64,000 nucleotides of DNA. Origin: Escherichia coli (GTDB taxonomy: Bacteria; Pseudomonadota; Gammaproteobacteria; Enterobacterales; Enterobacteriaceae). Each line of letters begins with the position of its first letter. Positions within the stretch are counted from its first letter, which is position 1. Below are positions 10,261-56,686 of the stretch, in pieces. Position numbers and translations under genes: made by a program. A model generated the notes under the pieces. It was not told the origin of the DNA and searched no databases. It saw only the letters and a program-made list of their open reading frames with translations. The DNA is taken from assembly GCF_048403405.1 (NCBI RefSeq), contig NZ_CP183129.1, one strand, 5' to 3'.

Positions 10261-10932
10261 ATGCAGTACCCGATTAACGAGATGTTCCAGACCCTGCAAG
10301 GTGAGGGTTACTTTACCGGCGTCCCCGCCATTTTTATTCGTTTACAGGGATGCCCGGTTGGCTGTGCCTGGTGCGACACCAAACACACCTGGGAAAAGCT
10401 TGAGGATCGGGAAGTCTCCCTTTTCAGCATTCTGGCGAAGACCAAAGAGAGTGATAAGTGGGGGGCGGCGAGCAGTGAAGACTTGCTGGCTGTCATTGGT
10501 CGCCAGGGATACACCGCGCGGCATGTGGTGATTACGGGTGGTGAGCCTTGCATTCATGATTTGCTGCCACTGACTGACCTGCTCGAAAAGAACGGTTTTA
10601 GCTGCCAGATCGAAACCAGTGGTACTCATGAAGTACGCTGCACACCGAATACCTGGGTTACCGTATCGCCAAAGCTGAACATGCGCGGCGGCTATGAAGT
10701 GTTGTCACAGGCACTGGAGCGAGCCAACGAAATCAAGCATCCAGTGGGACGCGTGCGTGATATTGAAGCACTGGATGAACTACTGGCAACACTGACCGAT
10801 GATAAACCGCGAGTCATTGCGCTGCAGCCGATTAGCCAAAAGGAAGATGCTACTCGTTTATGTATCGATACGTGCATTGCGCGCAACTGGCGTTTGTCGA
10901 TGCAAACACATAAATATTTAAATATTGCCTGA
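10261..10932 (+). CDS. queE: 7-carboxy-7-deazaguanine synthase QueE (radical SAM)
   Basis: 223-aa ORF MQYPINEMFQTLQGEGYFTGVPAIFIRLQGCPVGCAWCDTKH with radical-SAM Cys motif. Confidence 0.92.
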   Translation: MQYPINEMFQTLQGEGYFTGVPAIFIRLQGCPVGCAWCDTKHTWEKLEDREVSLFSILAKTKESDKWGAASSEDLLAVIGRQGYTARHVVITGGEPCIHDLLPLTDLLEKNGFSCQIETSGTHEVRCTPNTWVTVSPKLNMRGGYEVLSQALERANEIKHPVGRVRDIEALDELLATLTDDKPRVIALQPISQKEDATRLCIDTCIARNWRLSMQTHKYLNIA

Positions 10933-11169
10933 TTAAACATTTATAAGCGTTATAAATGGGTGGAACCTGTAAAGACTTCTACTCATTTATATTCTTTGTC
11001 GCCTCTAAAAAACCTCCATTTTGCCCATCCTGGACTAATCATTATCATTTTCTACAAATTCTGTGGTGTTAATTTTTCGTTGGAGTGAAAATTATTGCGG
11101 TGAAATTTGGTAGATTTTAGTTTGAATAGAGTTATTTTAAATATTTATCTTTTTAATCAATGGATTAAA

Positions 11170-11270
11170 TGCTCTTTAACATAATGGATGTGTTGTTTGT
11201 GTGATCCTGTAAAGTTGGTAGATTGTGACTGGCTTAAAAAATCATTAATTAATAATAGGTTATGTTTAGA
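11170..11270 (+). promoter_or_regulatory. CRISPR leader (AT-rich) of the queE-proximal array
   Basis: AT-rich sequence directly upstream of repeat 1; contains GTTGGTAGATTGT (about 11214-11226) 57 nt before the first repeat, the same motif and spacing as upstream of the cas2-proximal array. Confidence 0.7.
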
Positions 11271-12031
11271 GTGTTCCCCGCGCCAGCGGGGATAAACCGC
11301 GTTCAGCGTTGCTGGGCTGCGCAATGGACTGGTGTTCCCCGCGCCAGCGGGGATAAACCGCGGAGTTTTCACGGAACGCACAGCGAATTATGGTGTTCCC
11401 CGCGCCAGCGGGGATAAACCGCCGATAAATTTTCGCCCCGTTTCCAGCGCCGCGTGTTCCCCGCGCCAGCGGGGATAAACCGTTCAAACTGTAGGGATCG
11501 GCAATGGTGCCGAAGTGTTCCCCGCGCCAGCGGGGATAAACCGGGGCATTAGAATAACTTAAATGGAAAAAGAAAGTGTTCCCCGCGCCAGCGGGGATAA
11601 ACCGTCAGCCAGCACATAATTTTTATAGTCAGTATTGTGTTCCCCGCGCCAGCGGGGATAAACCGAAAGAGGTTATCGAGCGATATAACGCGTCCATGTG
11701 TTCCCCGCGCCAGCGGGGATAAACCGGTGCCTGGCGTCCATCTATTCACATGCCGCGCGTGTTCCCCGCGCCAGCGGGGATAAACCGTATTGGCGACGAT
11801 GGCATACCAGGACTACTCCGTGTTCCCCGCGCCAGCGGGGATAAACCGGCTCAGCGTCTGCTCTGGTGCCTCGCCCGTGAGTGTTCCCCGCGCCAGCGGG
11901 GATAAACCGGACCGTTACGGGCGCGTTCTTGGACTTGTTGAGTGTTCCCCACATCAGCGGGGATAAACCGGACACAGAGCGCCGCTATAGCGCCTATGCC
12001 AAGAGTTTCCCGCACCAGCGGGAATAAACCA
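11271..12031 (+). CRISPR. CRISPR array (CRISPR2.1-like): 13 repeats, 12 spacers of 32 nt
   Basis: 29-nt repeat GTGTTCCCCGCGCCAGCGGGGATAAACCG at 61-nt period starting 11271, 11332, 11393 ... 12003; repeat 12 degenerate (CCCCACATCAGCGGGG), terminal repeat 13 degenerate (GAGTTTCCCGCACCAGCGGGAATAAACCA). Frame anchored on ORF-track entries that translate repeats as RFIPAGAGNT/GLSPLARGT. Confidence 0.97.
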
Positions 12032-12485: not shown

Positions 12486-12624
12486 ATATTCCTTGTAAAA
12501 ACAGGGATAAACCGAACTAGTTAAAGTTTTTATTATGTTCCCTGCATCAGCGGGGATAAACCGGACTTGTTATCATTTTTTAAGTTGTCGAACTTATGTT
12601 CCCCACGTCAGCGGGGATAACCAT
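12486..12624 (+). CRISPR. Degenerate CRISPR remnant (CRISPR2.2-3-like), about 3 decayed repeat units
   Basis: Repeat-like units ending ACAGGGATAAACCG (12501-12514), ATGTTCCCTGCATCAGCGGGGATAAACCG (12535-12563) and ATGTTCCCCACGTCAGCGGGGATAACCA (12596-12623), separated from the main array by about 450 bp of AT-rich DNA. Confidence 0.7.
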
Positions 12625-12669: not shown

Positions 12670-14148
12670 TTACGCATTCGACCAGCTCTGGATCGAATCC
12701 GCATTCCCCAATTCCCCATGCATCACTTCATACGATTTTTTCAGGATTACATCAGTATGTTTGGTTAACTCCTTGAAAATGCCTTTATTCATCGCGTTGT
12801 AGCGTTTGGCGTTGCTCTCAACAGGCATAAAGATATCTTTCACGCGAACCATTTTGTCGACAGCCGTTGCGTAATCCGGGTATAGCCCCAGACCTACCGC
12901 CGTATTAATCGCTGCCCCCAGGCTTGCACAACCATTAATGGCGTTACGGCGTGCCGGAAGGTTGAACACGTCGGCAAAAATCTGCATAAACAGATCGCTG
13001 TTCGAACCGCCGCCAGTAATGATCACATGCTTTGCAAAGTGATTCATTTCATTACACATATTGTCGTAATTGTTCTTCAGCGTCAGCGCCACGCTTTCCA
13101 GTATCGAACGATATATCCATGCGTAATCCATGCTGGAATCAAAGCCAATCATAATCCCGCGTTTGTACGGTTCCCACGGATTGGTCAGCCAGTCCAGCAC
13201 CGTCATCAGACCATTACAGCCTGGCGGCACACAAGACGCTTTTTTGTTGAGCAAATCTTCCGGTGAAAGATCCTGTGCTTTGGCATCCTGAATTAACGAC
13301 TCGCCTAACATGTCGCGTAGCCAGCTCACCGTCCACATGCCTTTGCGAATACCGTAACCTTCATACAGCAAGGTTTGCGGAATAGAAGACATAATCGGCC
13401 AGTACGCTACCGGATCTTTCGGTAGTAATTTGCCGTTCATCATCAACGCGATGTAAGTGCCAAGAGAAATTACCGCAGTTTCATCATCCAGTAACCCGGC
13501 TCCCAGTGCTTCTACCGGTTTATCACTGGTGGTACAAACAACCGGCAGCCCAGCCGGGAAATGTGTCGCCAGCGCGGCTTGAGGAGTGATATGCCCAAGA
13601 ACAGTGCCCGGCATTTGCACATCAAACAGCATATGACGGGGGATATTAAACTTCTCCATGACTGCGGCATCTTCACTCCATGCCCAGGTCTTATAATCCA
13701 CCGGCCACTGACCAAAATAGTTGGCGATATTGTCTTTAAACTCGCCGGTTAAGCGATGCGTCAGATAACCCGAAAAAGAGGTGACATATGCCACGTCAGG
13801 ATTCGTATGTTCGTAAGGGCGTGTAACGCGTGCATCCTGCCAGCTAATCAACGGCGCAGCTGGCGTGCCATCGGCTTTCAATAACGCACGGCAGCAACGG
13901 ATGGATCCCAGACCAATACCGACAATATCTTCTTTATTTCCGGCAAACTGACTCATCAAATCGTGACCGGCAAAGCATAATGATGCCCATAAATCGTCGT
14001 CAGGATGTTCTGCGGTATCGGCATCTGGCGTGTGCATCGGCTGCAATAAGCCTTTGCCTTCGCAAACCACATTACCTTCCAGATCGTACATCACCACTTT
14101 TGTGCTCTGACTTCCACCATCAATCCCTATGATGTATTTTTTCGACAT
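12670..14148 (-). CDS. ygcE: FGGY-family carbohydrate kinase YgcE
   Basis: 492-aa ORF MSKKYIIGIDGGSQSTKVVMYDLEG... typical of FGGY sugar kinase N-terminus. Confidence 0.9.
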   Translation of the reverse strand: MSKKYIIGIDGGSQSTKVVMYDLEGNVVCEGKGLLQPMHTPDADTAEHPDDDLWASLCFAGHDLMSQFAGNKEDIVGIGLGSIRCCRALLKADGTPAAPLISWQDARVTRPYEHTNPDVAYVTSFSGYLTHRLTGEFKDNIANYFGQWPVDYKTWAWSEDAAVMEKFNIPRHMLFDVQMPGTVLGHITPQAALATHFPAGLPVVCTTSDKPVEALGAGLLDDETAVISLGTYIALMMNGKLLPKDPVAYWPIMSSIPQTLLYEGYGIRKGMWTVSWLRDMLGESLIQDAKAQDLSPEDLLNKKASCVPPGCNGLMTVLDWLTNPWEPYKRGIMIGFDSSMDYAWIYRSILESVALTLKNNYDNMCNEMNHFAKHVIITGGGSNSDLFMQIFADVFNLPARRNAINGCASLGAAINTAVGLGLYPDYATAVDKMVRVKDIFMPVESNAKRYNAMNKGIFKELTKHTDVILKKSYEVMHGELGNADSIQSWSNA

Positions 14149-28518: not shown

Positions 28519-28725
28519 CGAGCAGCATTCCGGCATTTAAAGGTGAACATCGCAGGGAGAATTAACAGGTATAGAATGGAGTTGGGTGCTTGAGGCTGTC
28601 TGGCGTTAAGCATTCGCGAGGTTCCAGATGGACAAAAGCCCCAGGCGATATTTCTATCAACCTGAGGCCAGCGTTCGAACCTAAGCAATTCGAATGTTAG
28701 TCTCTTCTTTGCAGGGAGGCAAGAC

Positions 28726-28878
28726 ATGCTGACAAAATATGCCCTTGTGGCAATCATCGTACTGTGTTGTACAGTACTGGGATTCACGCTGATGGTAGGC
28801 GACTCGTTGTGTGAGTTGAGTATCAGAGAACGTGGTATGGAGTTTAAGGCAGTTCTCGCTTACGAATCGAAGAAGTAG
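28726..28878 (+). CDS. Hok/Gef-family type I toxin (50 aa), not in ORF track
   Basis: ATG at 28726 preceded by AGGGAGG RBS; translation [50 protein letters not shown] has the Hok-family TM helix and C-terminal ...AYES.K signature; frame anchored against the antisense ORF 28681..28935. Confidence 0.8.
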
Positions 28879-29115: not shown

Positions 29116-31773
29116 GTGACTTTCTTTGATTTCTGGGGAAAAACCCGACGTGGCGAGAAAGAGGGTGGTGACGACTATCACCTTCTTTGCTGGCATTCGC
29201 TGGATGTAGCCGCGATGGGCTATTTAATGGTTAAAAGCAATTGCTTCGGGCTGGCTGACTATTTTCGTCAACTAGGTTTCGCTGATACGGAGCAGGCAGC
29301 ACAATTTTTCGCCTGGTTGCTGTGCTGGCACGATACTGGAAAATTTGCCCGCTCTTTTCAGCAACTTTACCTGCACCCGCAACTCAAGGTTCCGGAAAGC
29401 TCTAGAAAAAATTACGAAAAAATCTCTCATTCAACGCTGGGTTACTGGTTGTGGCACCATTATTTAAGTGAATGCGAAGAATTGCTTCCTTCATCTTCAC
29501 TCTCTCCGCGCAAACTTAAACGGGTGATAGAGATGTGGATGCCCATGACTACCGGGCATCATGGTCGCCCGCCTGACCGTATGGATGAACTGGATAATTT
29601 TCTGCCTGAAGACAAAGCCGCCGCGCGAGATTTTCTCCTTGTAATCAAGGCACTGTTTCCTCTCATCGAGATCCCCGCATTCTGGGATGATGACGATGGC
29701 GTTGAACTTTTAAAACAACTTTCCTGGTATATCTCTGCAACTGTCGTACTTGCAGACTGGACGGGATCGTCAACGCGATTTTTTCCACGCGTCGCGCAGG
29801 CAATGGATATTGAAGATTACTGGCAGAAGGCTTTAGTTCAGGCTCAAAACGCATTAACCGTCTTTCCTCCAAAAGCACAAACCGCGCCTTTCACCGGAAT
29901 TAATACGCTGTTTCCTTTTATTGAGCACCCGACACCGTTACAGCAAAAGGTGCTGGATCTGGATATCAGCCAGCCTGGGCCACAGTTATTTATTCTGGAG
30001 GATGTGACTGGCGCAGGTAAAACAGAAGCGGCGCTTATCCTGGCCCACAGGTTGATGGCTGCGGGGAAAGCACAGGGTTTGTTTTTTGGCCTGCCAACAA
30101 TGGCAACGGCCAATGCCATGTACGATCGGCTGGTAAAAACCTGGCTTGCTTTCTATTCGCCAGAATCCCGCCCCAGCCTGGTGCTGGCACACAGTGCCCG
30201 CACATTAATGGACCGCTTTAATGAATCACTCTGGTCCGGTGATTTAGTCGGGTCAGAAGAACCGGATGAACAAGCGTTCAGTCAGGGATGTGCGGCCTGG
30301 TTTGCCGACAGTAACAAGAAGGCGTTGCTGGCTGAAATTGGCGTCGGCACGCTGGATCAGGCGATGATGGCGGTGATGCCGTTTAAACATAATAATCTGC
30401 GGCTTCTGGGACTGAGTAACAAAATCCTGCTGGCTGATGAGATCCATGCCTGTGACGCTTACATGTCGTGCATTCTTGAAGGATTGATTGAGCGGCAGGC
30501 GCGTGGCGGAAACAGCGTTATTTTGCTTTCTGCCACGTTATCTCAACAGCAGCGCGACAAACTCGTTGCTGCCTTTGCGCGTGGTGCAGAGGGTCAGCAA
30601 GAAGCTCCGTTCCTGGAAAAGGATGATTACCCCTGGCTGACGCACGTTACGAAATCGGATGTGCATTCACACCGGGTAGCAACGCGCAAAGACGTTGAGC
30701 GTAGCGTGAGCGTGGGTTGGCTTCATAGCGAACAAGAGTGTATTGCGCGTATCGAATCGGCGGTAAGTCAGGGGAAATGCATCGCCTGGATCCGGAATTC
30801 TGTCGATGATGCTATTAAAGTTCATCGTCAGTTGCTTGCCCGCGGCGTCATTCCTGCTTCCAGCCTTTCTCTGTTTCATAGCCGCTTTGCTTTTAGCGAT
30901 CGCCAGCGAATTGAAACGGAAACGCTGGCACGCTTCGGTAAAGAAGATAGCTCACAGCGTGCCGGAAAAGTCCTCATTTGTACTCAGGTCTTAGAGTCGA
31001 GCGTTGATTGCGATATGGACGAAATGATTTCCGACCTGGCCCCTGTTGATTTGCTGATCCAGCGAGCGGGGCGATTACAGCGGCATATCCGCGATATTAA
31101 TGGTCAGTTAAAGCGTGACGGAAAAGACGAGCGTTCTCCTCCTGAATTGCTGATTCTGGCCCCCGTCTGGGACGACGCTCCAGGTGACGAATGGTTCGGC
31201 AGTGCCATGCGTAACAGTGCATATGTCTATCCCGATCATGGACGAATCTGGCTGACGCAGCGTGTACTGCGTGAGCAAGGCGCGATTCAAATGCCACACG
31301 CAGCCCGCCTTCTTATTGAATCAGTCTACGGTGAGGACGTGGTAATGCCGGAAGGATTTGCCCGCAGCGAGCAGGAACAAGTGGGCAAATATTACTGCGA
31401 TCGCGCAATGGCTAAAAAGTTTGTGCTGAACTTCAGGCCCGGCTATGCCGCCAATATCAACGATTACCTCCCGGAAAAGCTGTCGACACGTCTGGCTGAG
31501 GAGTCTGTTTCCCTGTGGCTGGCTACCTGTATTGACGGTGTGGTGAAGCCTTATGCCACCGGTGCTCACGCATGGGAAATGAGCGTTGTCAGAGTGCGTC
31601 GAAGCTGGTGGAAAAAACATTGCGATGAGTTTTCTTTACTGGAAGGGGAAGCGTTCAGGCAGTGGTGCGTTGAACAGCGGCAAGATCCGGAGATGGCAAA
31701 TGTGATTTTAGTTACCGATGACGAAAGTTGCGGGTATTCGGCTAGGGAGGGATTGATTGGTAAGGTTGATTGA
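29116..31773 (+). CDS. cas3: Cas3 HD nuclease/helicase (type I-E)
   Basis: 885-aa ORF, GTG start; HD motif (WHDTGK), Walker A (GAGKTEAA) and DEIHA helicase motif. Confidence 0.93.
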   Translation: MTFFDFWGKTRRGEKEGGDDYHLLCWHSLDVAAMGYLMVKSNCFGLADYFRQLGFADTEQAAQFFAWLLCWHDTGKFARSFQQLYLHPQLKVPESSRKNYEKISHSTLGYWLWHHYLSECEELLPSSSLSPRKLKRVIEMWMPMTTGHHGRPPDRMDELDNFLPEDKAAARDFLLVIKALFPLIEIPAFWDDDDGVELLKQLSWYISATVVLADWTGSSTRFFPRVAQAMDIEDYWQKALVQAQNALTVFPPKAQTAPFTGINTLFPFIEHPTPLQQKVLDLDISQPGPQLFILEDVTGAGKTEAALILAHRLMAAGKAQGLFFGLPTMATANAMYDRLVKTWLAFYSPESRPSLVLAHSARTLMDRFNESLWSGDLVGSEEPDEQAFSQGCAAWFADSNKKALLAEIGVGTLDQAMMAVMPFKHNNLRLLGLSNKILLADEIHACDAYMSCILEGLIERQARGGNSVILLSATLSQQQRDKLVAAFARGAEGQQEAPFLEKDDYPWLTHVTKSDVHSHRVATRKDVERSVSVGWLHSEQECIARIESAVSQGKCIAWIRNSVDDAIKVHRQLLARGVIPASSLSLFHSRFAFSDRQRIETETLARFGKEDSSQRAGKVLICTQVLESSVDCDMDEMISDLAPVDLLIQRAGRLQRHIRDINGQLKRDGKDERSPPELLILAPVWDDAPGDEWFGSAMRNSAYVYPDHGRIWLTQRVLREQGAIQMPHAARLLIESVYGEDVVMPEGFARSEQEQVGKYYCDRAMAKKFVLNFRPGYAANINDYLPEKLSTRLAEESVSLWLATCIDGVVKPYATGAHAWEMSVVRVRRSWWKKHCDEFSLLEGEAFRQWCVEQRQDPEMANVILVTDDESCGYSAREGLIGKVD

Positions 31774-31798
31774 GATGCCCTGGAGTCGGAGGACTCCA

Positions 31799-31889
31799 GG
31801 GCCTATCCCCGCTGACGCGGGGAACGGAATAACAGAGTAACAGGAGCTACCTCTTACTGCTGGTTTATCCCTACGTTAATAGGGAAGAA
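31799..31889 (-). repeat. Two degenerate CRISPR-repeat-like units in inverted orientation in the cas3-cse1 intergenic region
   Basis: 31799-31827 GGGCCTATCCCCGCTGACGCGGGGAACGG matches the reverse complement of the repeat at 23/29 positions; 31861-31889 TGGTTTATCCCTACGTTAATAGGGAAGAA matches at 17/29 and keeps a CCCTA/TAGGG stem; start-to-start spacing 62 nt. Confidence 0.6.
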
Positions 31890-32238
31890 GGGAGTATAGC
31901 ATCTACTGAGATGAATTTGTTTTGATATTTAATGTGAACTTCCTCTTACTGCCTTTACATTTTTCTATGCGAGGAGTAATCTTTGCTCAGTTTGGGAGAG
32001 TTGAGTTTTTTTTACCCAAATATAGGCTCTGGATACAGGACTGATTGGTTATTCCAGAGTATGAGAATTATGTAAGAGGGTTGTACCATGGAAGAAAAGA
32101 CCTCCCGCTGTAAACGACTGTTTTGTCGACTAATGGTTCGTTTTGGTAAAAGGTTGTCAGTTAGTTTTCAGTTATCGGTTAACTAAAGGTTTAAGGGATG
32201 ACAAATGCCATGGAAGGTGATTTTAATAAGGAATAGTT

Positions 32239-33801
32239 ATGTACCCTACTAGTTTAATTACTTCCCCGTGGTTGCCTGTTCGTTTCAAAGACGGAACGAC
32301 AGGCAAGCTGGCGCCAGTCGATCTGGCTGATGAAAATGTTGTCGATATCGCTGCGCCTCGGGCAGATCTCCAGGGGGCGGCATGGCAGTTTTTGCTGGGA
32401 CTATTACAAACCAGCTTCGCGCCAAAAGATCAACGTCGTTGGGATGACATCTGGGAAGACGGACTGGAAGCTGAAAAGCTACGGGAAGCATTGCTGTCAT
32501 TAGACCATGCTTTCCAGTTCGGGCCAGATTCACCTTCATTTATGCAGGATTTTGAGGCGCTCACGGGAGATAAAGTTCCGGTCGCTTCGCTACTGCCTGA
32601 GATTCCCGGCGTTCAAACAACAAAGTTTAATAAAGACCACTTTATCAAGCGTGGTGTAACGGAACACCTGTGCCCACAGTGTTCTGCACTAGCCTTGTTC
32701 TCTCTACAGTTAAATGCACCGTCAGGCGGCAAAGGCTATCGCACCGGTTTACGCGGCGGTGGGCCGATGACGACTCTCATTGAATTACAGGAATATCAGG
32801 GCAATCAACAAACACCCTTGTGGCGCAAACTGTGGCTCAACGTGATGCCGCAGGATGAAGCCGACTTACCGCTACCCAAAAAATTTGACGATCTGATTTT
32901 CCCCTGGCTAGGCCCGACGCGTACCAGCGAACTGGCCGGTGCGGTGGTAACCCATGATCAGGTCAATAAACTCCAGGCGTACTGGGGAATGCCGCGGCGT
33001 ATACGTATTGATTTTAATACCACGACAGTCGGCAACTGCGATATTTGCGACGAGCAGAACGACGCGCTCCTGAGCCTGATGACGACCAAAAATTACGGTG
33101 CCAATTATGCCATGTGGCAGCATCCCTTAACGCCTTACCGTGTACCACTTAAAGAGGGTGGCGAGTTTTACTCCGTTAAACCACAACCGGGCGGTTTAAT
33201 CTGGCGCGACTGGTTAGGCCTTATCGAAACGGGTAAATCAGAAAACAATACGGAACTTCCCGCGCTGGTGGTGAAACTCTTTAATGCCAGCAGTCTGAAA
33301 CAGGCAAAAGTGGGCCTATGGGGATTTGGTTATGATTTTGACAACATGAAAGCGCGCTGTTGGTACGAACACCATTTCCCGCTACTGCTCAATAAAAAAG
33401 AAGGCCAGATACCGAAGCTGCGGCTGGCTGCGCAAACGGCTTCACGGATTCTGAGTCTGTTACGGAGTGCATTGAAAGAAGCATGGTTCTCCGATCCAAA
33501 AGGTGCAAGGGGTGATTTCAGTTTTGTGGATATCGACTTCTGGAACAAAACTCAGCATCGCTTCCTGAGGTTAGTGCGCCAAATTGAAGAAGGTCAGGAT
33601 GCGGATGAATTACTCGGCAAATGGCAAAAGGAAATTTGGTTATTCGCGCGTCAGGATTTTGACGAGCGTGTATTCACTAATCCTTATGAGCCCGTTGATT
33701 TGAAACGCGTCATGACCGCGCGCAAGAAATATTTTACAACATCGGCGGAGAAGCAAAGTGCTAAAGCCGCCAGGGAGAAAAAGCAGGAGGCTGCTGAATG
33801 A
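32239..33801 (+). CDS. casA: Cse1 / CasA, large subunit of Cascade (type I-E)
   Basis: 520-aa ORF first in the Cascade operon; divergent from the K-12 CasA sequence as I recall it. Confidence 0.85.
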   Translation: MYPTSLITSPWLPVRFKDGTTGKLAPVDLADENVVDIAAPRADLQGAAWQFLLGLLQTSFAPKDQRRWDDIWEDGLEAEKLREALLSLDHAFQFGPDSPSFMQDFEALTGDKVPVASLLPEIPGVQTTKFNKDHFIKRGVTEHLCPQCSALALFSLQLNAPSGGKGYRTGLRGGGPMTTLIELQEYQGNQQTPLWRKLWLNVMPQDEADLPLPKKFDDLIFPWLGPTRTSELAGAVVTHDQVNKLQAYWGMPRRIRIDFNTTTVGNCDICDEQNDALLSLMTTKNYGANYAMWQHPLTPYRVPLKEGGEFYSVKPQPGGLIWRDWLGLIETGKSENNTELPALVVKLFNASSLKQAKVGLWGFGYDFDNMKARCWYEHHFPLLLNKKEGQIPKLRLAAQTASRILSLLRSALKEAWFSDPKGARGDFSFVDIDFWNKTQHRFLRLVRQIEEGQDADELLGKWQKEIWLFARQDFDERVFTNPYEPVDLKRVMTARKKYFTTSAEKQSAKAAREKKQEAAE

Positions 33802-36793: not shown

Positions 36794-38003
<1,210 letters not shown>

Positions 38004-38099
38004 GTTATCCGTTCTTTAAAAATAAGGAAATGTTTGAATTTAGTTGGTAGATTGTTGATGTGAAATAAAGTTGTTTAAAAACAGATATGTATGCTTAGT
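38004..38099 (+). promoter_or_regulatory. CRISPR leader of the cas2-proximal array
   Basis: AT-rich 96 bp between cas2 and repeat 1; GTTGGTAGATTGT at about 38044-38056, 57 nt before the first repeat. Confidence 0.75.
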
Positions 38100-38496
38100 G
38101 TGTTCCCCGCGCCAGCGGGGATAAACCGAATACGCAACAGTGTTTTTATTGACAACACCGGTGTTCCCCGCGCCAGCGGGGATAAACCGGCAACGCCAGT
38201 AAATCAGACCAACGGCGCTGGGTGTTCCCCGCGCCAGCGGGGATAAACCGCGTTGTTTTGCCGGGTCGGGTGAATATATCGTAGTGTTCCCCGCGCCAGC
38301 GGGGATAAACCGGCCAGATTTCCAGTTCACTGGTCTTCGCGGCAAGTGTTCCCCGCGCCAGCGGGGATAAACCGAATGAGAGCTGACAGGTGTATGTCAT
38401 CAGTACGTGTTCCCCGCACCAGCGGGGATAAACCGTAATATTAGACTAATGTTTTTTTGTTGAGTTCGTGTTCCCCGCGCCAGCGGGGAACTCCCA
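38100..38496 (+). CRISPR. CRISPR array (CRISPR I, cas-adjacent): 7 repeats, 6 spacers (32-33 nt)
   Basis: Repeat GTGTTCCCCGCGCCAGCGGGGATAAACCG at 38100, 38161, 38222, 38284, 38346, 38407 (one G-to-A change) and a truncated terminal repeat at 38468 (GTGTTCCCCGCGCCAGCGGGGAACTCCCA). Confidence 0.97.
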
Positions 38497-55427: not shown

Positions 55428-56686
55428 GATAAAAACTCTCTTTGGGCTCGTGAAAAAAAGGCTTCATCACCGAAGTTGCCAGATTTAAGGGCGAGTGAGA
55501 CAGGTTTATCCAGTGCGTTTACCCACGGCACGCCGGGAGAAATGGTTGGGCCAATATGAAACCCTTTTATTCCCAGGCTCTGTGTGACTACGCCGGAGGT
55601 CTCACCGCCTGCGACAATAAAGCGTGTCACGCCTTCCGCTGCTAACCGCGCCGCTAGTTGAGAAAACAGTGTTTCTACTGCCTGACTGGCTTTATGTGCA
55701 CCGTATTGCTGTTGAATTGCTGCCAATGCGTCAGTGCTGGCAGTGGCAAAAACCAGTGGAGCAAGTACACTTTCCTGGCCCAGAACCCACTCTGCCAGTT
55801 CGTGTGCATAAGCGGCCAGAGTTTCAATTGAGAGGCAGCGTGCCACATCAACTTCACGGGCTGGTGCAATTTGACGGTAATGTGCTACCTGGCAGTTGGT
55901 CATTTGAGAGCATGAACCGGAGAGCACTACGCCGCGCCCAGCGAGCGGATGCCCTGCTTTGCGAGCCTGGTTACCGTTTTCTTGCGCCCACTGCCGGGCA
56001 AGGCCAATCGCCAGACCAGAACCGCCCGTTACCAGTGGGGTATCGCGCAAGGCTTCTCCCTGAATTTCCAGATGGTGTTCGGTCAGCGCATCAAGCACCG
56101 CGTAGCGGTAGCCCTCTTGCTGTAAGCGAGCCAGCTCTTGACGAACGGCATCCACACCTTGTTCGAAAACATGTGCCGAAACGACGCCGCAGCGCCCTGT
56201 GGATTGCGCTTCAACCAGACGGGGAAGATAGCTGTCGGTCATGGGATTTACCGGGTGATGGCGCATCCCGGATTCGGCCAGCAGTTGATTCATTACGAAC
56301 AAATACCCCTGATAAACCGTACGTCCGTTGACCGGCAGGGCCGGAGAGAAGACCGTAAACGGCGTGTCGAGAGCATCCATTAATGCATCGGTAACCGGGC
56401 CGATATTACCTTTCGCCGAACTGTCGAAAGTAGAGCAGTATTTGAAATAGATCTGTTTGCAACCTTGCTGTTGCAACCAGCTCAGTGCCGCCAGCGATTG
56501 CTGTGTGGCTTCAACCACCGGACAGGAACGCGTTTTCAGGCTGATCACCAGTGCGTCGATTGCTTCCGGCATTTTACCTGTTGGAACACCGTTAATTTGT
56601 ACCGTTGGTAGACCGTTTTCCACCAGAAAACTGGCGATATCCGTCGCGCCGGTAAAATCATCGGCGATAACGCCAATCTTGATCAT
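55424..56686 (-). CDS. ygbK: Four-carbon acid-sugar kinase YgbK (OtnK, DUF1537 family)
   Basis: 420-aa ORF MIKIGVIADDFTGATDIASFL... Confidence 0.85.
   Translation of the reverse strand: MIKIGVIADDFTGATDIASFLVENGLPTVQINGVPTGKMPEAIDALVISLKTRSCPVVEATQQSLAALSWLQQQGCKQIYFKYCSTFDSSAKGNIGPVTDALMDALDTPFTVFSPALPVNGRTVYQGYLFVMNQLLAESGMRHHPVNPMTDSYLPRLVEAQSTGRCGVVSAHVFEQGVDAVRQELARLQQEGYRYAVLDALTEHHLEIQGEALRDTPLVTGGSGLAIGLARQWAQENGNQARKAGHPLAGRGVVLSGSCSQMTNCQVAHYRQIAPAREVDVARCLSIETLAAYAHELAEWVLGQESVLAPLVFATASTDALAAIQQQYGAHKASQAVETLFSQLAARLAAEGVTRFIVAGGETSGVVTQSLGIKGFHIGPTISPGVPWVNALDKPVSLALKSGNFGDEAFFSRAQREFLS

Follow-up and report, generated by a model that had tools for sequence, protein, structure and literature searches.

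Why should two CRISPR arrays that lie 27 kb apart in Escherichia coli carry the same 13 bases at the same distance upstream of their first repeat, and what would those bases do there? We addressed this question in a 64,000-nt stretch of DNA (hereafter, the window), which contains a queE-proximal array (array 1; 11271–12031, + strand) of 13 repeats with a 61-nt period, the final two degenerate, and a cas2-proximal array (array 2; 38100–38496, + strand) of seven repeats, the final one truncated after GGGGA. The repeat in both arrays is GTGTTCCCCGCGCCAGCGGGGATAAACCG, read on the + strand. All degenerate or truncated repeats occur at the high-coordinate ends, at 11942 and 12003 in array 1 and at 38468 in array 2, in agreement with the original prediction, which had placed them distally. 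Its assignment of the leaders to the low-coordinate ends is likewise borne out by the forward canonical repeat, by these degenerate distal repeats and by the leader, IHF site and motif, all of which lie upstream. Two of the repeat-to-repeat spacings in array 2 (38222–38407) are 62 rather than 61 nt, corresponding to 33-nt spacers. A vestigial third array in the same orientation, resembling K-12 CRISPR2.2, was found at 12501–12624, where a 5′-truncated repeat and two degenerate repeats adjoin a YgcE-like gene.

The layout of the locus is that of E. coli K-12, in which CRISPR I sits beside cas2 and CRISPR II beside queE. Array 1 lies between queE (10261–10932; NCBIfam QueE) and the gene for a YgcE-like sugar kinase (12670–14148; NCBIfam), an order syntenic with K-12 CRISPR II. 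The window also encodes a complete type I-E operon of eight intact genes (cas3-cse1-cse2-cas7-cas5-cas6e-cas1-cas2; NCBIfam), in which the integrase genes cas1 and cas2 occupy 36799–38003 on the + strand (cas2 at 37710–38003) and match the models for Cas1e (TIGR03638, E=3e-114) and Cas2e (TIGR01873, E=3e-39; NCBIfam). Cas3 and Cse1/CasA (29116–33801) pass the general type I-E models and fall below the K-12-specific NCBIfam equivalog cut-offs (424 versus 569 bits and 98 versus 576 bits), and these low K-12-specific scores therefore point to a non-K-12 variant of the I-E operon, though its Cas1 is 86% identical to that of K-12. A sok antitoxin RNA (Rfam RF01794, 111.7 bits) was detected just upstream of cas3 (28584–28741, + strand), at the place where sokX lies in K-12, and the Rfam search returned no RNA family at either leader. 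The queE–CRISPR intergenic allele of the window (10700–11300) is rare, being found at 100% identity in 6 of 5,426 complete E. coli genomes, with nearly all other complete genomes carrying a region that is 90–95% identical.

Exact copies of the shared 13-mer, GTTGGTAGATTGT, were located on the + strand at 11214–11226 and 38043–38055, with no third exact copy in the 64 kb. With repeat 1 beginning at 11271 in array 1 and at 38100 in array 2, both copies span -57 to -45. The claim that the 13-mer is common to both leaders and starts 57 nt before repeat 1 in each was upheld by this exact recount; the coordinates first proposed were correct for the queE-proximal copy, but those for the cas2-proximal copy (38044–38056) were one base too high. 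Only two relatives with two mismatches were found in the 64 kb, at 11106–11118 and 56604–56616. Pairwise comparison of the leaders, ungapped from repeat 1, confirmed that the motif aligns in register at equal spacing, with 14 of 14 positions identical in -58 to -45 as against 30 of 86 (35%) in the remainder of -100 to -1, the latter being roughly what chance would give for such AT-rich sequence. An in-register exact run of at least 13 bases was obtained in 3 of 200,000 shuffles.

Compared with published leaders, as the original prediction had proposed, the position of this block is that of an element already described in the type I-E leader of E. coli. In that system a conserved block spans -44 to -59 and the IHF site -9 to -35, and CBS2 (-46 to -57) was the sole block upstream of the IHF site whose 12-bp mutation abolished acquisition in vivo (Yoganand et al., PMC5224486). 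Only the central 4 bp of CBS2 were essential, namely GTGG at -50 to -53, termed the "integrase anchoring site" (IAS). IHF binding and bending were intact in mutants of CBS2 or of its central 4 bp, and both kinds of mutation abolished acquisition in vivo, the Cas1-2/IHF supershift and in vitro integration with purified proteins (PMC5224486). Reviews refer to the element as the "upstream recognition motif" or as upstream elements at -50 to -55, and one describes the IHF bend as carrying the elements at -50 to -55 to Cas1-Cas2 bound at the junction (PMC10011333).

We confirmed the numbering convention on K-12 CRISPR I, where GTTGGTGGGTTGT lies at -57 to -45 and GTGG at -53 to -50. Set against the published -46 to -57, the -57 to -45 of the window's motif therefore equates the 13-mer with CBS2 plus one base and makes GTAG its core, at 11218–11221 (-53 to -50) in the queE-proximal leader and at 38047–38050 in the cas2-proximal leader. 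The K-12 CRISPR II motif is identical to the window's sequence, GTAG included. Relative to the E. coli IAS/CBS2 (PMC5224486), the distance to the leader–repeat junction (-57 to -45, core -53 to -50), the conserved block, the host species and the type of Cas1-Cas2 are all the same, and an IHF site lies before the repeat, well matched at array 2 and weak at array 1; the difference lies in the core, GTAG in the window versus GTGG in the tested BL21/K-12 CRISPR 2.1 leader. No IAS-like motif was found upstream of the vestigial array at 12501–12624, which thus serves as an internal negative control. We put at about 0.9 the probability that the 13-mer common to both leaders serves as the upstream recognition element for Cas1-Cas2 in type I-E (CBS2 including the 4-bp IAS). 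As such, GTTGGTAGATTGT is an already published element, and its detection here is the rediscovery of a well-characterized site.

The conservation of leaders in other species supports this identification. Using Cas2 alone as the probe, we collected 80 loci, one genome per species, of which 72 had a cas2-proximal array; these yielded 71 distinct leaders, aligned on repeat 1 only, from Enterobacterales, Gilliamella, Shewanella, Pseudomonas, Methylophaga and others. By information content, the strongest conserved block in the 71 leaders was -56 to -45, with the consensus TTGGT[A/G]GA.TTT and conservation of 100% at G-53, 92% at T-52, 90% at G-54 and 86% at G-50. Further information peaks corresponded to the IHF core (C-18, 96%; A-17, 97%; T-10, 97%) and the TTAGA junction. 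With A at -51 in the majority (59%) of the 71 leaders, GTAG represents a normal variant of the tested GTGG. Of 76 leaders, 60 carry GGTRG at -54 and four others carry it at -53. When the window was scored with a PWM from other species' leaders, the cas2-proximal block was the best position (17.0) and the queE-proximal block was among the top three (15.5), both above the median of the training set (14.9). The window's three leader copies, at 38043, 11214 and 11106, took the first three places among ~128,000 positions. Within E. coli, nine alleles of the queE–CRISPR intergenic region differ at 54 of 321 positions (17%), and the array-1 block is invariant across all nine. Among the same alleles, a 33-nt stretch at 11172–11204 (CTCTTTAACATAATGGATGTGTTGTTTGTGTGA) is variable only at its last base; it covers approximately -95, where a review puts the CRISPR-2 transcription start (PMC10011333).

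Published E. coli work indicates how the block would operate at these two leaders. IHF would occupy the leader from approximately -35 to -9 and bend the DNA by ~120–180 degrees, which would return the DNA around -50 to -57 onto the Cas1-Cas2 integrase at the leader–repeat junction. Contact with the motif would then stabilize the complex and make the leader side of repeat 1 the target of the first nucleophilic attack, so that new spacers would enter at the leader-proximal end only. A motif that has to reach Cas1 over a fixed IHF bend would be held at a set distance from repeat 1, and this geometry would thus account for the same motif offset in two otherwise unrelated leaders 27 kb apart. E. 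coli encodes IHF. The intasome of phage lambda attP, in which IHF bends hand arm-type sites to Int, follows the same logic of a sequence-specific IHF bend that delivers a distant short motif to a recombinase at the strand-transfer site, but its proteins and motifs are unlike those of the CRISPR leader and the likeness is an analogy only. For the window's own leaders, we infer from the literature that Cas1-Cas2 would contact the block and need it for integration. The intact elements, together with the intact cas1 and cas2 genes, suggest that both leaders are functional, as had been proposed.

The two leaders differ in how well they match the proximal IHF site that this mechanism calls for, with a canonical site confirmed at array 2 and a weak one at array 1. 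At array 2, the core AAACAGATATGTA (38079–38091, + strand; -21 to -9) falls within the published -9 to -35 region and keeps the profile-conserved C-18, A-17, T-10 and A-9. An IHF PWM built from 68 leaders over the 21 nt from -25 to -5 (38075–38095 in array 2, which contains the core) scored this site at 14.9 (median of the training leaders, 15.4), a value that the window reaches nowhere else. At array 1, the proximal IHF region (11236–11262, + strand; -35 to -9) holds a core in the canonical register, TAATAATAGGTTA at 11250–11262, with T at -18, a position held by C in 96% of leaders; the core scored 0.1 on the PWM versus the median of 15.4, ranking 4 of 68 (bottom 6%). All nine E. coli alleles share this core without change, K-12 CRISPR II has it too, and it is probably the one used. 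By analogy with the identical K-12 CRISPR II leader, we assume that folding of the queE-proximal leader would be IHF dependent. An alternative register 10 nt upstream of the canonical core, AATCATTAATTAA at 11240–11252 (-31 to -19), matches the IHF consensus at 11 of 13 positions and is equally imperfect; we do not prefer it, as its key C is polymorphic in two E. coli alleles and the published geometry would break.

Of the competing explanations for the shared block, the one that survives best holds that it is a promoter or transcription-start element for pre-crRNA, with TAGATT as the -10 hexamer, or a regulator site, rather than an integration element. TAGATT agrees with TATAAT at four of six positions, including A2 and T6, and the K-12 CRISPR-1 transcription start lies ~50 nt upstream of repeat 1, near the motif; however, the CRISPR-2 start lies at about -95, so that the arrays share no start site at the motif (PMC10011333). 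In approximately 40% of leaders, including K-12 CRISPR I, G at -51 (TGGRTT) abolishes the resemblance to a -10 hexamer without shifting the register, and a consensus scan for sigma-70-like promoters on the + strand found none that covers the motif in the two leaders. Moreover, mutation of CBS2 blocks integration in vitro with only purified Cas1-2 and IHF, where transcription is irrelevant (PMC5224486). We consider a purely transcriptional role very unlikely, and a dual role in promotion and integration possible.

Slighter still is the prospect that the block is a functionless remnant of a duplicated leader, retained through common descent. The two arrays do have the same repeat, and a profile of the cas2 3′ end and leader (38 species, repeat excluded) aligned by nhmmer to the array-1 leader over 116 nt (E=5.8e-7), which makes common leader ancestry plausible. 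Neutral decay, however, would not leave complete identity in the block against 35% elsewhere, nor would it preserve one register for the block in different orders of Gammaproteobacteria or leave it invariant among E. coli alleles that have diverged around it. Chance, finally, is excluded: leaders are ~73% A+T, short shared words are common in such low-complexity DNA and, once shuffled, 200-nt leaders shared a longest substring of 8.4 nt on average (maximum 15), but in-register runs of at least 13 bases were almost absent from the shuffles, the exact 13-mer is confined to two leaders in 64 kb and 71 other leaders conserve the block as well.

With the shared 13-mer taken as the Cas1-Cas2 recognition element, we turn to the sequence upstream of it, where a related motif about 100 bp further on had been noted at the first array only. 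This motif, TTTGGTAGATTTT, lies at 11106–11118 on the + strand, 108 nt upstream of the array-1 motif and with its GG at -162. Its PWM score of 16.4 is the second best of 128k window positions, only the R position among its 13 columns differs across the nine E. coli alleles, as compared with 15 of 40 columns in its flanks, and 14 of the 15 distinct E. coli-type alleles among the metagenome matches listed keep it. Its restriction to the first array holds for the 13-mer at up to two mismatches but not for the core, as array 2 has the counterpart CCGGTGGATTTGG at 37947–37959 (+ strand; GG at -151), within cas2 codons P80-V81-D82-L83.

Each distal motif is followed by a second, perfect IHF consensus. 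In array 1 this is AATCAATGGATTA (11155–11167, + strand), followed by CTCTTTAA at 11172–11179; in array 2 it is AATCAATAAGTTA (37995–38007, + strand), which overlaps the cas2 stop codon (38001–38003) and is followed by TTCTTTAA at 38012–38019. Both leaders can thus be written as GGT[A/G]GATT, a perfect WATCAANNNNTTR 46 nt on (counted from GG) and then [C/T]TCTTTAA. The distal IHF site of array 1 has three variable columns in the nine E. coli alleles, two of which are N positions. Across 76 leaders, the distal consensus was found at -93 in 26, at -105 in nine and at -116 in two, both of the E. coli queE type, and 39 leaders besides the window's are counted as having the element at one of these positions; in most loci that have it, a second GGTRG occurs correspondingly at -139, -151 or -162. 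K-12 CRISPR I has the same distal layout, its distal site carrying one mismatch. The ~11-nt steps between the positions of the distal consensus (-93, -105 and -116) may reflect helical phasing, with a second fold made by IHF. Compared with the commonest class of leader, ~11 nt in array 2 and ~22 nt in array 1 are inserted between the distal module and the IAS. The regions concerned (38025–38041 and 11185–11212) carry insertions whose lengths approximate whole helical turns.

At array 2 the distal motif falls in coding sequence, and codon usage there is unusually uniform. In the 40 loci whose cas2 ends AAT CAR TRR, which carry the distal IHF consensus, the P80 codon is CCG in 39 (entropy 0.17 bit) and the V81 codon is GTA or GTG in all 40, while other conserved Ala, Thr, Ser, Gly, Arg, Leu, Val and Pro codons in the same group have entropies of ~1–2.4 bits and the P93 codon is never CCG. 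In 39 other loci, which lack the distal site, P80 is spread about evenly over the four codons (CCG in 13 of 39; 1.95 bits), and fewer than 85% of these loci have Val at position 81. This pattern suggests constraint at the DNA level on synonymous sites of cas2 codons 80–82. Taken at face value, the putative second module of cas2-proximal arrays would lie within the last 55 nt of cas2, and its equivalent at the orphan queE-proximal array would be non-coding.

We also considered 11100–11170 as a decayed cas2 3′ end, but did not adopt this reading, the in-frame translation having only 5 of 19 identities to the Cas2 C-terminus. In the array-1 leader the nhmmer alignment covers the stretch between the distal IHF site and the junction and falls short of the upstream motif, and with the weak 5/19 match this means that homology by descent with cas2 is not established.

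In the metagenome scan, the matches listed were mostly E. coli alleles, with one independent orphan-leader lineage among them. This lineage comprises an orphan type I-E array downstream of a LysR-family regulator gene on four contigs (L167, L177, L202 and L205). Its leader carries the distal IHF consensus, CTCTTTAA and, at -54, GGTAGATT (the IAS), and in the L202 type it has only a partial GGTGAAAT at the offset of the second motif (-46 from the distal IHF site). Another contig (JAEWTL010000035.1) bears the label "MAG: Bacillota bacterium"; its Cas2 shares 98% identity with that of the window, its leader and repeat are of the Escherichia type, and it probably comes from an enterobacterium and was assigned to the wrong bin.

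A structural precedent for a leader with two such modules exists in type I-F, where two IHF sites and two inverted-repeat motifs are folded by Cas1-2/3 (bioRxiv 10.1101/2023.05.26.542337). Like that leader, those of the window have an additional IHF consensus, distal and perfect, and a second motif, 100–165 nt from the repeat; unlike the I-F inverted repeats, the I-E motifs are direct copies of GGTRGAT, and the integrase has no Cas3 fusion. The same preprint states that E. coli I-E "relies on one IHF" and attributes multiple IHF sites and motifs to "some I-E" leaders, citing a 2021 survey (bioRxiv 10.1101/2023.05.26.542337); the distal module may therefore already have been catalogued there. 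In published E. coli assays, 60–69 bp of leader were enough (PMC5224486), and the distal module is therefore at most modulatory, with a contribution that would be quantitative. Our tentative proposal, which we regard as improbable on present indications, is that E. coli I-E leaders, commonly portrayed with a single IHF site and a single motif ~50 bp upstream, carry a conserved second module (GGTRGAT, IHF consensus and CTCTTTAA) whose IHF-mediated fold would tune integration at native levels of Cas1-Cas2.

Together, these results give GTTGGTAGATTGT a value at the level of annotation, identifying the probable Cas1-Cas2 docking site and fixing the orientation of both arrays, and they indicate that neither leader has lost the element that leader-proximal spacer insertion requires. 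As a lead the distal module is modest, and it is the only part of the locus that might repay experiment. Were it functional, part of the CRISPR leader would overlap the end of cas2, and the "60-bp minimal leader" used to study adaptation in E. coli would lack a layer of regulation that is conserved.
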